Origin: a virus
Lineage: Duplodnaviria > Heunggongvirae > Uroviricota > Caudoviricetes
Length of the DNA stretch: 34,666 bases
IMG/VR virus record: IMGVR_UViG_2909288124_000006
Direction: 5' to 3' (one strand)
The notes beneath the pieces are model-generated. The model did not search any database. It was not told where the DNA came from and worked only from the letters and a program-made list of their open reading frames with translations. The position numbers and the translations under genes are program-made. This document shows positions 23,256 to 30,249 of the stretch, piece after piece (the first letter of the stretch is position 1; the number at the start of each line of letters is the position of its first letter).

Positions 23256-23567
23256 ATTTTGACGGCCTTATCTGCTACCCCATCAAATCAAAAGTCCTCA
23301 CGTCTTTTTCATGCTCAGCGTGAGAAATACAGCCATTCTGTTGTGTCGCTGCGACATCGTTCAGGGGATGCTATTTACCCCCTGAAACGCGGGCTGTTCC
23401 CCCGTCACCTGCGCGCAGAAAAAGCGCGTTTTTTTGTGCACGTACGGATCCTTGACGGATCCAGCCACCACGCGGGCCGGAAGTACAAAAAGTCGTTCAA
23501 AAAAATTGTGCAAACTTGTGCACTATCGTGCAAACAAAAAAAGCGCCTTATCGGCGCTTCAAAAGTA

Positions 23568-23837: not shown

Positions 23838-23977
23838 TTTATTTACCTCATAGGAAAAATATGCGTGCCTTTACAGAGGTGCGTGTAAGCAATAAAATAT
23901 ACGACGCACATTTTGATTTACTTCGGAAGGCACGCATATCAGGTTAAGTGAGTCCGACCGAGTTTTACGCCCCAATA

Positions 23978-24000: not shown

Positions 24001-24201
24001 CATGGACAATGCCGCGCAATTATCTTGTCGCTCACAATGCGAACGATCTTACAAAAAGGCACATTACTGTCAAGATAATTGATCGTTTTAATCGATAGAT
24101 AATAGACAATCTATTTGTTTAACAGATCGATTATTGAAGTAAGTGTGCCAAATGGAATGATACTGTCTCTATAAACGTGAGCATTTTTCGCGCAGATGCT
24201 T

Positions 24202-24513
24202 TTACTCAGGAAATAACGCCCGGATATTCCCAGCCATCTGGCTGGTTATCTTAGCCACTGGTGCAGACTGTGCTTCAAACTTTTTTGAGCTGATTTGTGT
24301 CACAGGTAACATCTCATCATCAGCCCATGCGGCCAGTCGGTAAGCCTCTGCCGGATTCGTCTTCAGAAGTGCCAGCCCGGCCAGAAAAGCCACGCGTTGG
24401 CCGCTTTTGCGGGCTTCTGGTGTAAGGCTGTCCAGCCAGGCGCATGCTTCTCCTTCGTTCTTGACGGCAGCTGGCTTCAGATAGAAACTTATTCTTCTGG
24501 TTGGTGTCGTCAT
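24202..24513 (-). CDS. parR: ParR-like centromere-binding adaptor (type II partition)
   Basis: 103 aa directly downstream of parM; ...VAFLAGLALL... resembles R1 ParR region. Confidence 0.7.
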   Translation of the reverse strand: MTTPTRRISFYLKPAAVKNEGEACAWLDSLTPEARKSGQRVAFLAGLALLKTNPAEAYRLAAWADDEMLPVTQISSKKFEAQSAPVAKITSQMAGNIRALFPE

Positions 24514-24517
24514 TGGT

Positions 24518-25477
24518 TTACTCCTTGTTCATTGCGTACAGCCCATTAACCAGAGCAAATTGTGGCCCCCCGTCCGCGATGAAAGTCGCATTAACTCCGC
24601 AGGCTTCGCGGATAGCGGGTGCCACAATCTCCGCCCCGCCACCGACAACCATCACCCGCCCGTAACCCGAAAAAACCGCCAGCGCGCGGATCACGCGTTG
24701 TTTCAGTGTTTCTTCCTTTTCACGAATAACCGCCATCAGGCTGGCGTAATGCGCGTCATTGTGGATGTGCTGGCGCAGCCAGGCTTCATCATGGCGATGT
24801 TCGATAATGGTATTGGCGATGTGGTGACTGGTGCGCATACCGTTAGTGGCCATCACCGACAGTACGGCATCGGCCATAAGAGAAACGCCTACGTGTGGAT
24901 CGCAAAACAGCTGGCTGATACCTGCCAGTTGCCCCTGAACCTTTGCCACATCCAGCGTGGTTCCGCCCAAATCCACAATCAGCAGGGATTCAAACGGACT
25001 CATGTCAGCCAGAGCCTTAAAGCCAGCCGGAATGGATTCAGGCATAACCCGCACGTTACAGATAGTGAATGCTTCGCCGTTCTGGTACTCCACCGGGCGC
25101 ATAACGTTCGCTTTTTTGCGGTTGATGTTGGCCATGTCCGGCTGTGCGTTTGTGTCGAAATACTCGCTCAGTGGCAGGGTGACAACCACATCCACCTCCT
25201 GTGGCGTGATGCCTGATTTGACCAGTGCGTGATGAATGGCAATGACATTCACATCGCTGTACTGGTATTGCGTGTCGGTCGTCTGGACAAAGCGATCGCT
25301 GACCGGATCAAAACCGTAGCGCACGCCATCAAGCATGTAGTTCGCGGGCTGCGTGCCACTGAACGGCGCAGACCATTCCGACTTGAAACTGTTCGGGCTG
25401 ATGGCGTTGCGGCGTTCGCCGTTCTCAGTCCATGCCAGCTTGATGTTGGTGGAGCCGTCGTCGATACAAATTTTCAT
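24518..25477 (-). CDS. parM: ParM/StbA actin-like segregation ATPase
   Basis: 319 aa; IDDGSTNIKL, YSDVNVIAIHHAL, VMPESIPAG, DLGGTTLD motifs matching plasmid R1 ParM as remembered. Confidence 0.9.
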   Translation of the reverse strand: MKICIDDGSTNIKLAWTENGERRNAISPNSFKSEWSAPFSGTQPANYMLDGVRYGFDPVSDRFVQTTDTQYQYSDVNVIAIHHALVKSGITPQEVDVVVTLPLSEYFDTNAQPDMANINRKKANVMRPVEYQNGEAFTICNVRVMPESIPAGFKALADMSPFESLLIVDLGGTTLDVAKVQGQLAGISQLFCDPHVGVSLMADAVLSVMATNGMRTSHHIANTIIEHRHDEAWLRQHIHNDAHYASLMAVIREKEETLKQRVIRALAVFSGYGRVMVVGGGAEIVAPAIREACGVNATFIADGGPQFALVNGLYAMNKE

Positions 25478-25508
25478 GTCGCTTTTCCTTATGTTGATTA
25501 ATTAATCG

Positions 25509-25623
25509 TTTACGGGATTCTGAAATCCCGTTTTTGCCTGTTTTGTGTGCGCTTCATATATCGCGGCGCGTTTTTTGCTCATTTACGGGATTTGTGAATC
25601 CCGTTTCTGTCTGTTTTTTGTTT
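25509..25623. repeat. Two about 40-bp direct repeats, each containing an 8-bp-stem palindrome (acgggatt N4 aatcccgt) followed by a T-rich tract; parC-like centromere/operator candidate
   Basis: Copies at 25509-25547 and 25581-25623; first is 32 bp upstream of parM start, second lies in the last codons of gene A. Confidence 0.55.
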
Positions 25624-28376
25624 CCACTGGTCAGGCTACCCCGCAGCAGGTCTGCTTTGCGGTGGGCGCGTTCAGTGGTTTCACTGATTCTCTGTGCGTG
25701 CTCTGCGTCACGGATGGCGCGCAGCATGTCAGAAAGCACGGTAACGGGGGTTTTCATGGTGTTCTGGTCCTGCTGAAGTGTGGATGCCAGACGTGCGGCG
25801 GCTTCGGGGTCTGATGCCCCCAGTTGTTCCAGATAGCTGGCGACCGGGTTATGGCGGATCTCTGTGCTGCTTACGCCGTGATTACGGCTCAGGCGCTGCC
25901 AGAGCTGCGTGATTCGGCTGTCCGGGCGGGTATCCGGTTTGCGTACAATTTCAAATCCCTGCGGTGCAATGATGCTGCCGTCAACGTACAGGCTGCCGCC
26001 CCGTAACAGGTGCTGCATCTGCTGTTCACCGATATGCAGGCCGAGAGATTCGGCAGATTCCCGCCATTCTTTAGCGAGTAATTCGTGGTTATCAGGCAAA
26101 GGCCGCTGCTGTTTGCGGCTCTGTGTCCAGCTCTGCATTTCATCACTGCTGTTTTTTGCCTGTTTGTCACGAAGCGAACGCATCAGCGCCCGGCGTTCGT
26201 GCCGTTTCAGTGAGCGCATCCATTCGTTCACTTCAACGCCATCAGGGAGCTGCGGCCACGGTGCTGGCCGTTCTTCCGGCTGTTCTGTCCCGTTGTTGTT
26301 CGTTTCCTGTACACGGGGACAGTTATTGCCACGAGTCCAAGGGGCGGCAGGGCCGCCCTGAAGGTCAAAACCATTTTCGCGGGCGCTGTCTTCCGCTTCC
26401 GGTTTACGTCTTACCAGCTTCCAGTTATCCGGATGTGTGCACACACGGGAAGACTCCCCGATGAGTGGTGACCAGATCCCGTAAATCTGTACGCTCTGTT
26501 CGCCGTAATCGTTCAGCTCATCTGCGAGGTCGTAGGCGGTGCGAATCAGGTAGTCTTTGCGTGGAACAAGTACGCCGCCCTGTTTTTCAATGTAGGAGGC
26601 AAAACACCCGGCATCAGCGGCAGCGAGCACTGCATCCATTGCGTCATCCTTCAGTCGTTGCGGGCCTTCCGGGTTGCGTGCCATCTGGCTGGCAAGGCGG
26701 CGCAGTTCACGCCACACCTGACGGGAGGGGATGCCAAAGAACTGGAACTGGCGGACCCGGTGAAGGCGCGCCCAGCCGATGGCGCGCTCCACGCTCTCGG
26801 CCATTGATTTTCCGGTTTCGTGGTCAACGCGTGGCTTGCCCGTTTTCGGGTCGATACCATCCACGGCGCGGCTGTCCAGGTTCTTTCCGATGTAGGTGGC
26901 GATGTAGCTGGTTGGCGTGCCTTTTGAGCCGTCGACGTACTCCGCTTTAAAACGCGGAGTTATGTCATCGCCCAGCTCGTGGCGGTCTTCCTGAATGGCA
27001 ATATCGCAGACGTGGGACACGATGGTTTCAATCTCGTCCGGATGTGCAAAGACCATCATATGCCAGTGCACAGTGCCGTCATGGTGAGGCTCCACCGTGC
27101 GGATGCCATACCAGCGAAGACCGTCGCGGTTCAGTTTTTTGCGGACCGCCGCAAAAAACGTGTTAACCAGGTAATCGCTGGAGTCGCGCATGGTGGCCCC
27201 GTTCCATTTGGGATTCGGATGACCGTTCTCTGTTGTGGCGTGGTATTTTGACGGGCAGGTGACAGTCAGAAACACCGCTTTGTCGCCACGGGCTTCGGCC
27301 AGAAGTTCCAGCCCCTTCATGGTGGCCATCATTTCTGCCTTACGGTGAACCGGGTTACTTACTCCCGCGTAATACACTGTCTCGAGATCAATCGTGAACC
27401 CGTCTTCGTTTTCCAGCATGAAACTTTTCAGGAAATCGCGTGTTTTCTCGCGCTGTGCGCGAAACTCGCTTAATGCGTCCTGGCTCAGATAGGGCGATGT
27501 TTTTCTGGAAACCAGACAGGCGGCGCGGAGTTGTTCTTCTCTCCACTCGCAACGTAACAGCCACAGTTTGCGTTTCCACCATTCCGCACAGGTCAGGCGA
27601 AGGATTGCGCCCGGCAGCAGCTCCGTGTCCGGTTCGTTCCTCCGGTCTTTGTCTGTTGTCAGTGCGTCATAATGTGGAGGCATGATGTGCAGGTGTAACG
27701 CCATGCGGGCCAGCATCTGATACGCCTTCAGCGTTACATCCATGGTCAGTTCGCCATCGGTCGCGCCAAAGCCATCGCAGAGTTTTTCGAAGGTGCTGCT
27801 GAACATCGCCGCCGTCATGGTGGCCAGCGTCTGTATCTGGTGTTTGTTGAGCTGCGGCAGGTAAAGCAAATCGTCCAGGCGTTCGCGTCCGGCAAGGGAG
27901 CGATACCCCGGTGTCAGCCAGCGTCCGTCAGTGCGATCCAGACGTTCGAATATTTTGCGCAGGGTTCCGCGTGCATAGCGTTCCGCCTGCCAGCTCTTTT
28001 TGCATTTCCGGTGATCGGCTTCCTGTTTTTTGCGCAGGAAGGAGAGGTGGCGAATAAGCGGATCGCGCAGATAGGACGGCAGCAGGCGCAGCGAGGCCAT
28101 GGCTTCATCCACCGCGCCGCGTGCCTGTTTTCTGGCGTCTCCTGCCAGTGTGATGGTTTTGTCCTGTTTTTCCTGTGCGTCCAGGCTTTTATTAATCAGG
28201 TTGCCCAGCGGCGTGGCGGAGAACGCCGCATCAGCCATTTCTTGGCGTCGCTCGTTCTCTGCCCGGTAGGCATCCAGCCAGGAGGAAAGCGCGGATTCAG
28301 GAGCGGGGATCCCCGTTCCTTCACGCCCCACTGCGTGGCGCGGTTGTTGCCAGTCCCTGATGTACTCTGCCGTCAT
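25554..28376 (-). CDS. A: Replication initiation endonuclease A (rolling-circle, P2 gpA family)
   Basis: 940 aa; VEPHHDGTVHWHMMVF and YIATYIGKN motifs typical of gpA. Confidence 0.9.
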   Translation of the reverse strand: MTAEYIRDWQQPRHAVGREGTGIPAPESALSSWLDAYRAENERRQEMADAAFSATPLGNLINKSLDAQEKQDKTITLAGDARKQARGAVDEAMASLRLLPSYLRDPLIRHLSFLRKKQEADHRKCKKSWQAERYARGTLRKIFERLDRTDGRWLTPGYRSLAGRERLDDLLYLPQLNKHQIQTLATMTAAMFSSTFEKLCDGFGATDGELTMDVTLKAYQMLARMALHLHIMPPHYDALTTDKDRRNEPDTELLPGAILRLTCAEWWKRKLWLLRCEWREEQLRAACLVSRKTSPYLSQDALSEFRAQREKTRDFLKSFMLENEDGFTIDLETVYYAGVSNPVHRKAEMMATMKGLELLAEARGDKAVFLTVTCPSKYHATTENGHPNPKWNGATMRDSSDYLVNTFFAAVRKKLNRDGLRWYGIRTVEPHHDGTVHWHMMVFAHPDEIETIVSHVCDIAIQEDRHELGDDITPRFKAEYVDGSKGTPTSYIATYIGKNLDSRAVDGIDPKTGKPRVDHETGKSMAESVERAIGWARLHRVRQFQFFGIPSRQVWRELRRLASQMARNPEGPQRLKDDAMDAVLAAADAGCFASYIEKQGGVLVPRKDYLIRTAYDLADELNDYGEQSVQIYGIWSPLIGESSRVCTHPDNWKLVRRKPEAEDSARENGFDLQGGPAAPWTRGNNCPRVQETNNNGTEQPEERPAPWPQLPDGVEVNEWMRSLKRHERRALMRSLRDKQAKNSSDEMQSWTQSRKQQRPLPDNHELLAKEWRESAESLGLHIGEQQMQHLLRGGSLYVDGSIIAPQGFEIVRKPDTRPDSRITQLWQRLSRNHGVSSTEIRHNPVASYLEQLGASDPEAAARLASTLQQDQNTMKTPVTVLSDMLRAIRDAEHAQRISETTERAHRKADLLRGSLTSGNKKQTETGFTNPVNEQKTRRDI

Positions 28377-29418: not shown

Positions 29419-30249
29419 TTACTTCACCGGAACAAACGGAACAGCGGTGTTACTGGTCATGTATTGCGGTAGCGTGCCGTTCCATTTGTTAATCGCTTCC
29501 AGCTCCATAACGCCGGGATTCTGGCGCAGAGCTTCACCGCGTAAACGAATGGCGTCGGCTTCAGCCTGGGCTTTTGTGCGAATGGCATCGGCCTGTCCGG
29601 CTGCTTCTGCGCGTAGCATGTTGGCTTCTGCTTCGCGCTGCTTGACTTCCTGTTCGCGTTGCAGGGTTTTCTGGTTTGCCGTGACTTTGGCGTTAATGCT
29701 GTCGATAACGGTTGGCGGATATTCCGGTTTACCGACATAAGAGAGGCTCATGACCTGAATGCCGATGGGGGTCATCTCTTCCTGAATATCTTTAAGTGCT
29801 GAATCCAGCAGTTCAGACTTACCACCGTCGATAAACTTATCGGTGGTCATTTTGCTGGCCAGTCGGTTGAGTGCATCGGCGATCTTCTGGCGCAGGTCAG
29901 TGTCGGTAATGTCATCCACGCCTTTGCGGTAGGTCTGAAACACTGTAGTAACTTTGGATGGATCAACCTTGTAGGCCACACCGATGTGATAGCCGATGGT
30001 TGTGCCGTCACTCATCTGGAAGCTGAACGGCTCATCGTAGGTCTTCATTTGTTTGAAGGTCGGGAAGATGTAAACCTCGGTATTCCAGCCAGTCCAGTAG
30101 CGGCCAACGCCAACCACTTCGCCGACGCCTTTGTCGTCGCCCAGTTTGTTGACTTTGATGCCCACATTACCTGGCTCAACGCGATCGCAACCAACCAGCA
30201 GGATGGCGGCAAAAAGCGGGAGAATCTGAAAGAGTTTGAATTTCTTCAT
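29419..30249 (-). CDS. SPFH/band-7 domain lipoprotein (lipobox LLVGC with Asp at +2, predicted inner-membrane retention)
   Basis: 276 aa; SPFH-like N-terminal domain then Ala/Glu/Gln-rich coiled-coil; hairpin downstream at about 29383-29408. Confidence 0.8.
   Translation of the reverse strand: MKKFKLFQILPLFAAILLVGCDRVEPGNVGIKVNKLGDDKGVGEVVGVGRYWTGWNTEVYIFPTFKQMKTYDEPFSFQMSDGTTIGYHIGVAYKVDPSKVTTVFQTYRKGVDDITDTDLRQKIADALNRLASKMTTDKFIDGGKSELLDSALKDIQEEMTPIGIQVMSLSYVGKPEYPPTVIDSINAKVTANQKTLQREQEVKQREAEANMLRAEAAGQADAIRTKAQAEADAIRLRGEALRQNPGVMELEAINKWNGTLPQYMTSNTAVPFVPVK

Follow-up and report, generated by a model that had tools for sequence, protein, structure and literature searches.

Genes at the Locus

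The window, meaning the whole stretch of 34,666 nucleotides that was analysed, belongs to a P88-like (Xuanwuvirus) temperate phage of the P2 family, a prophage of E. coli, and the roughly 2 kb spanning the repeats described below are 95-97% identical to phages P88, 520873, P884B11, and phiSM. The minus strand encodes three genes at this locus, A, parM, and parR. Gene A (25554-28376), whose stop codon occupies 25554-25556, encodes a replication endonuclease of 940 amino acids. The parM gene (24518-25477) encodes an actin-like segregation ATPase, recognized by the Pfam families StbA_N (2.6e-81) and ParM C-terminal domain (4.6e-68), and its product matches the R1 ParM structure 1mwk with an E value of 1.1e-91. 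The parR gene (24202-24513) encodes an adaptor of the StbB/ParR family (PF10784, 9.8e-24; PHROG 2515 'partition protein', 2.3e-59). As in type II ParMRC systems, an actin-like ParM gene adjoins the repeated site, and parR follows directly 3' of parM.

The gene A protein is longer than that of P2 (940 against 761 amino acids), and residue 42 of P2 A aligns with residue 77 of the window's protein, an offset of about 35 residues. Its C-terminal part is long and variable; other P2-like A proteins align at 37-40% identity over part of the C-terminal region only, and its last 120 or so amino acids are absent from them. Past the parR stop at 24202, the cargo varies among relatives, comprising gp19-22 in P88, memP in phiSM, and HicAB in the Serratia relative L196. 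The cargo of L163 and L195 includes a gene for an HTH-M78 peptidase, accompanied in L163 by a PIN-domain gene.

The Repeat Pair and Its Parts

Two copies of a single 43-nt direct-repeat family, 81% identical and 73 bp apart from start to start, occupy positions 25506-25548 and 25579-25621. Both contain a perfect 8-N4-8 palindrome, ACGGGATT-N4-AATCCCGT, at 25512-25531 and 25585-25604, respectively. When all 34,666 bases were searched for this palindrome with up to three mismatches, these two sites alone were returned, against a chance expectation of 0.14, and two matches were reached in 1 of 100 shuffles. No second repeat family was found in 25300-25800, nor any additional GGGATT or AATCCC half-site near the two repeats. 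A preliminary description of this DNA had reported the repeat pair with its perfect palindromes, a T-rich tract 3' of each palindrome on the plus strand, and the placement of one copy 5' of parM and the other in the last codons of A; the pair proved real in the repeat search, which found exactly two sites in the window, the tracts are present and flagged by a terminator scan, and the genes lie as described.

The proximal repeat (25506-25548, minus strand), a candidate parC element, lies in the intergenic region between A and parM. Its core, GGGATT-N4-AATCCC at 25514-25529, sits inside the palindrome and starts 52 nt 5' of the parM ATG, the end of the palindrome being 34 nt from that codon. The distal repeat (25579-25621, minus strand), likewise a candidate parC element, overlaps the final 23 codons of gene A and reads on the sense strand as an A/C-rich flank, the 20-bp palindrome, and AAATGA; its core, GGGATT-N4-AATCCC or, more generally, GGG-N10-CCC, occupies 25587-25602 inside the palindrome. 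The 30-bp spacer between the copies (25549-25578, minus strand) includes the A stop codon and a weak, variable -10-like TATATG, and its nucleotide diversity of 0.11 is above that of the repeat cores.

A perfect palindrome of 12 bp, GATTAATTAATC, lies at 25496-25507, with the proximal site on one side and the ribosome-binding site on the other. This palindrome belongs to a ATTAATCAA...ATAAGGA element that is kept in the distant lineages L193 and L194 as well, and its diversity is 0.036, compared with 0.065 at the third codon positions of parM. This element may be a promoter, a leader, or another binding site.

Promoter-Like Sites and DNA Shape

The preliminary description placed the parMR promoter over the repeats. 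A scan found no sigma-70-like promoter in or beside them, 25300-25800 being free of promoter-like sites. By eye, two weak candidates can be picked out, aTGAgc-N16-TATATG and TTCAGA-N16-ATTAAT, the first of which, containing the best -10 candidate, varies among relatives. With no sigma-70-like promoter detected by the scan, the customary coincidence of centromere and operator finds no support here, and parMR may be read through from the early operon. Farther along, in the variable cargo region 3' of parR, two divergent promoter-like sites with 10 of 12 matches each are present at 23870-23898 (plus strand) and 24046-24073 (minus strand); the former, TTTACA-17-TAAAAT, faces parR in antisense orientation.

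The A-tract phasing of 10.5 bp at the repeats is the strongest in the window, a level matched by 13 of 2000 shuffles, and the second-strongest lies at about 23381-23540. The parC of R100, a proven centromere, displays the same phasing peak. No such phasing is present in L193 or L194, and it was dropped as a general feature, having been seen in the window family and R100 but not in those two lineages.

Inheritance of the Repeats with parMR

Mosaic relatives delimit the unit to which the repeats belong. In L124, gene A has no nucleotide match to that of the window, and in L061 the 3' part of gene A has been swapped for other sequence; in both, homology to the window returns where the distal repeat has its left edge (25619 or 25618), persists at about 95% identity as far as the parR stop at 24202, and is then lost. 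These limits identify the exchanged unit as the repeats together with parM and parR. The repeated cis site, at -126 and -52 with the boundary at 25619, is inherited with parMR, as in type II ParMRC.

The Hafnia relative L009 is 36-72% identical to the window in the 3' third of A, 84% in the proximal repeat, and 84-94% in parM; across window positions 25650-26250, within gene A, DNA identity is just 36-72%. Both palindrome cores are kept in L009, A is read in a different frame over the distal site, and the A stop codon falls in the loop of the distal palindrome. Because the reading frame differs, coding does not explain the conservation of the site; that the distal repeat runs into the 3' end of gene A seems to be incidental to the placement of the module.

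The two-site signature was found in 93 viral contigs, all in this P88-like phage family. A parM gene was detected beside it in 92 of them, and in 90 a full-length parM starts 36-37 nt 3' of the signature. Repeats in relatives without parMR, looked for as the case that would speak against a partition site, turned up in obvious deletion derivatives alone: the rearranged contig L170 and the internally deleted L163, in which parM is absent or a stub and the repeats are present. The deletion in L163 (3780-4300) joins parM codon 21 to the last parR codons and retains both repeats. Relatives with the same gene A but without parMR were not found in the phage collection, and a scan of genome contigs for close relatives yielded only three near-identical loci.

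Paired changes occur in two relatives. In L061 (1351-1503), both palindromes share a change from CGGG to CAGG; in L088 (1351-1503), the two copies depart from AATCCC at the same T, one having A there and the other C. These pairs could reflect gene conversion, co-adaptation, or chance, and no ParR change matching them was seen.

Conserved Sites in Distant Lineages

A search with ParM led to remoter P2-like prophages that carry parM-parR at the same place, in Hafnia sp. (L193), Plesiomonas (L194), and Serratia (L196). ParM identity is 54-62% among the window and these three, and 60-62% among the window, L193, and L194; scans of viral contigs with the ParM proteins of L193 and L194 gave almost no matches. 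In the window family, the distal site GGGATTCACAAATCCC and the proximal site GGGATTTCAGAATCCC are spaced by 73 and lie at -126 and -52 from the parM ATG. The corresponding sites are GGGATTGAGGAAACCC and GGGTTCATTAAATCCC in L193 (spacing 73; -128 and -55) and GGGACAACAAAAACCC and GGGACAACACTAACCC in L194 (spacing 72; -131 and -59). Two GGG-N10-CCC sites are thus kept in all three lineages, and the sequence between them is unrelated. When the upstream regions of L193 and L194 were shuffled, at least two sites arose in 12 of 20,000 and 32 of 20,000 cases, respectively, and this spacing never did. A look for the repeat near parMR in related elements had been proposed, and in L193 and L194 the GGG-N10-CCC core is present there at matching spacing and position.

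An additional gene separates A from parM in L193, so the sites follow parM, not A. The sites of L194 are palindromic at GGG/CCC only and those of L193 are partly non-palindromic; the folding energies of both are near those of shuffled sequences, and no T-run follows the sites. Since the sites are kept in these lineages without the hairpin, what is conserved is a DNA motif at fixed spacing and fixed distance from parM, not a stem-loop. The weight initially placed on hairpins and the T-rich tract therefore seems misdirected, these features being apparently incidental and the conserved unit being GGG-N10-CCC.

Serratia-type systems are built differently. The ParM proteins of L196 and L197 are 58% and 53% identical to that of the window, and their ParR strand, NRKISFYLKP, is similar. 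L196 (3340-3500) and L197 (1000-1200) share the flank CAGGCAAAAACGGGA, and their repeat layout is different, consisting of inverted arms of 19 nt (GGGAACGAWATAGAAAAAT and its complement) separated by about 28 nt, to which L196 adds a GCCGTTTAAACGGC palindrome.

A functionless duplication or recombination scar, left at the junction where a parMR cassette was inserted, would account for the coincidence of the mosaic junctions with the repeat edge. The repeats do recombine, as L032 (1351-1503) has lost exactly one 73-bp unit, which leaves it one site and gives A a new tail. Nevertheless, core, spacing, and distance from parM are the same in lineages with about 60% ParM identity and unrelated intervening sequence, a divergence that a neutral remnant would not outlast, which makes such a scar highly improbable.

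The location of the distal repeat within the A reading frame, and of the P2 origin inside gene A according to the P2 record, raised the further prospect that the repeats are part of a rolling-circle origin or accessory binding sites for the A protein. The nick-site annotation of the P2 record is at 29892, within gene A, and on that basis a homolog was located in the window at 26319-26356 (minus strand, inside gene A), with about 31 of 39 bases identical; this stretch is itself identical in Hafnia L009. Nick-site homology was not found at 25506-25621. The homolog lies upstream of the distal repeat at a distance of about 735 bp. It is likely to be the rolling-circle origin of the window phage, and this distance makes the repeats unlikely to be the origin. 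Moreover, the repeats stay with parMR when the A allele is replaced, and in L193 they follow parM despite the intervening gene. The suggestion of an origin, made earlier as an alternative, is weakened accordingly by the nick-site homolog, and an origin-related role is now barely credible.

RNA-Level Explanations

Two further explanations assign the palindromes a function in RNA. On the plus strand, they could act as tandem intrinsic terminators for transcripts antisense to parR-parM, shielding gene A or setting the 3' end of an antisense RNA. An 8-bp stem followed by a T-rich tract, flagged by the scan in both copies, has the expected form, the hairpins of the window reach about -10 kcal/mol on either strand, and the promoter-like site at 23870-23898 is directed at parR. 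The stems are weak, however, and in plus-strand RNA the proximal stem would carry an A-C mismatch that is terminal in 32 of 75 distinct sequences and internal in 12 of 75, as the counts of G-U pairs imply. If a cargo-gene transcript were to be terminated, the terminator should lie beside that gene rather than 1.3 kb on, and 25300-25800 contains no promoter-like site. The combination of a stem and a U-tract is present in the window but not in L193 or L194, where hairpin and T-run are lost and the site, its spacing, and its position are kept. The earlier alternative of terminator-like hairpins on the plus strand is undercut by that absence, and a terminator function is very improbable.

On the sense strand, hairpins in the A-parM mRNA might serve in RNA processing or stability, uncoupling parMR expression from that of the early operon, or might control parM translation. 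Sense-strand folds are more stable than shuffled sequences, with z scores of -4.2 and -5.2, and two common polymorphisms of the proximal stem retain G-U pairs in sense RNA. A and parM are not separated by a sense-strand terminator, which makes read-through likely. Against this stands the distal stem, which has a C-A mismatch in 18 of 75 distinct sequences. Among the common polymorphisms, one disrupts the distal stem in sense RNA, and two others would disrupt the proximal stem in antisense RNA. Compensatory changes were found in 0 of 16 stem pairs among 75 distinct close-family sequences, a weak test by itself given their low divergence, and covariation in the stems was 0.051, compared with 0.053 in shuffles of the same low-divergence set. 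This result agrees with the distant lineages, as L193 and L194 lose the hairpin potential and keep GGG-N10-CCC with its spacing and position. A structured RNA element was rejected for want of compensatory changes and of any Rfam match, and mRNA hairpins as such are very unlikely to explain the locus.

In sum, the two sites exist, belong to the parMR module, and keep their sequence, spacing, and position where the hairpin potential disappears; neither coding, nor RNA pairing, nor an origin accounts for their conservation.

The ParR Protein

ParR is the only DNA-binding protein in the module. In the ribbon-helix-helix fold, the N-terminal strand is the DNA-reading element, and in R1 ParR the C-terminus is the part that binds ParM. 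The N-terminal RRISFYLKP of the window's ParR is invariant in 19 aligned family variants that are 43-88% identical to it, and the sole departure seen in this strand is the change from F to L in L185 (RRISLYLKP). The corresponding strand reads TRRVSFYLKP in L193 and TRRISFYLNP in L194. At the other end of the protein, NIRALFPE is conserved and aligns with the C-termini of plasmid ParR proteins. Between the two, the folded domain occurs as two allele types and is joined to a linker at residues 65-90 that is hypervariable. The distribution of variation points to diversifying change there, with the contacts to DNA and ParM kept. No co-variation was found between site variants and ParR allele type.

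A ribbon-helix-helix fold of the window's ParR is predicted solely from its Pfam family; a sequence search of the PDB returned no match for ParR, and the AlphaFold model of the monomer is poor (pLDDT 54). The cluster representatives P0025 and P0081 look frameshifted.

A Candidate Centromere and Its Proposed Mechanism

In characterised type II systems, the centromere lies 5' of parM (PMC9426499). The two repeats are quite probably the parC centromere, bound by ParR, of a type II ParMRC cassette in P88-like prophages of the P2 family. The preliminary description had proposed a parC-like ParR site of parMR, and this is the best-supported reading, on the strength of a mosaic module, a fixed position relative to parM, a core kept without its hairpin, and an invariant ParR strand; the promoter overlap that came with it found no support in the scans, and the emphasis on hairpins seems misplaced.

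We infer ParR binding, its stoichiometry, looping, and autoregulation from sequence comparison, along the following lines. ParR, as a ribbon-helix-helix protein, would sit on each 16-bp core GGGATT-N4-AATCCC, probably as a pair of dimers. The half-sites of a core are inverted hexamers 10 bp, or one helical turn, apart, an arrangement that would suit two dimers on one face of the helix. The 73 bp between the repeats correspond to seven turns, which places both cores on the same helix face, and in the window family the intervening DNA carries phased A-tracts. A compact, possibly looped ParR complex could thereby form on about 120 bp of DNA, from which the C-terminal tail NIRALFPE would capture or cap the ends of ParM filaments. 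The complex would perhaps also limit transcription into parMR.

A broader proposal is tentative and, on present evidence, more doubtful than not: that this ParR family has a recognition mode undescribed for type II systems, in which dimer pairs on inverted GGG-N10-CCC, at two sites seven turns apart, would make up a minimal centromere. The cassette would then be a prophage actin-like machine for excised or replicating phage DNA, as proposed for AlpAC of CGP3, and its targets might even include the host chromosome or, through partition incompatibility, incoming ParMRC plasmids.

Distribution and Significance

ParMRC is the textbook actin-like DNA segregation machine, and it has been studied nearly always on plasmids. 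The present locus occurs in 1302 of 5426 complete E. coli genomes, or about a quarter, including O157:H7 and O104:H4 strains, and its places in these genomes are chromosomal in 1439 cases versus 2 on plasmids. Some records show the phage as a separate circular replicon (e.g., CP025923, CP025874, and NZ_CP148288), and occasional extrachromosomal carriage is possible. No publication dealing with partition in P88-like phages came up in a literature search.

What the locus appears to present is a complete ParMRC cassette in a chromosomally integrated P2-like prophage that is common in E. coli. Narrowing the candidate centromere to two 16-bp cores renders the system directly testable, and the inverted-repeat, two-site layout, if true, widens the known designs of parC.

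Comparison with Known Systems

The plasmids R1 and R100 carry one of the closest known systems, of type II ParMRC. Their ParM is 46% identical to that of the window (tblastn), their ParR belongs to the same Pfam family, and their parC, like the window's repeats, lies directly 5' of parM-parR. In both cases repeat blocks flank a short core, measuring 43-30-43 bp in the window and consisting in R1 of five iterons, a core of about 40 bp, and five more iterons. The window and R100 parC are also alike in their A/C-rich sense strand and 10.5-bp A-tract phasing. R100 iterons present AACCC every 11 bp and the window's half-site is AA(T/A)CCC, a resemblance to be taken as a lead only. Although the window's A/C-rich flanks resemble R1 iterons, direct similarity to R100 parC was tried and rejected, the local alignment score of 19 against a shuffle mean of 20.5 being not significant. 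The differences are equally plain: R1 has ten 11-bp direct iterons, whereas the window has two sites with internal inverted symmetry; R1 parC contains a promoter, whereas none is evident in the window; and R1 is a plasmid, whereas the element studied here is an integrated prophage.

According to a 2022 paper, all characterised ParR proteins bind direct repeats (PMC9426499). The window does not hold a direct-iteron array of 4 to 10 or more copies, as in R1, pSK41, and pCW3, but two copies with inverted-repeat cores. The novelty of the locus would accordingly lie in two inverted-repeat sites seven helical turns apart in place of such an array.

Proteins of the ribbon-helix-helix fold, such as Arc, CopG, and omega, read short subsites about one helical turn apart. 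Such subsites, for example those bound by ParG at parH of TP228, may stand in direct or inverted orientation (PMC3130281). Subsites of this type fit the window's core of two inverted hexamers 10 bp apart; parH/ParG and its relatives differ in being type Ib systems or plain repressors, with sequences unrelated to those of the window.

Two systems on integrated elements complete the comparison. In SXT/R391, srpMRC is, like the cassette in the window, a ParM-type partition system on a normally chromosomal element, and it has paired direct and inverted repeats (PMC4489591). SrpR is not detectably similar to ParR, and its repeats differ from those of the window in sequence and layout; binding and plasmid stabilisation have been shown experimentally for srpMRC of SXT, whereas those of the window's system are predicted. 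In the prophage CGP3, AlpAC comprises an actin-like protein and an adaptor that binds repeats 5' of the operon, and it is induced early and needed for efficient replication of phage DNA (PMC4446434). By analogy, AlpAC is a possible model for the role of ParMR in a P2-like phage. AlpAC and alpS of Corynebacterium glutamicum CGP3 belong to another actin-like family and to another type of host and phage, and alpS contains 24 short repeats (TTAAnnG), compared with two sites in the window. With these differences in view, srpMRC and CGP3 AlpAC are the nearest functional precedents on integrated elements.
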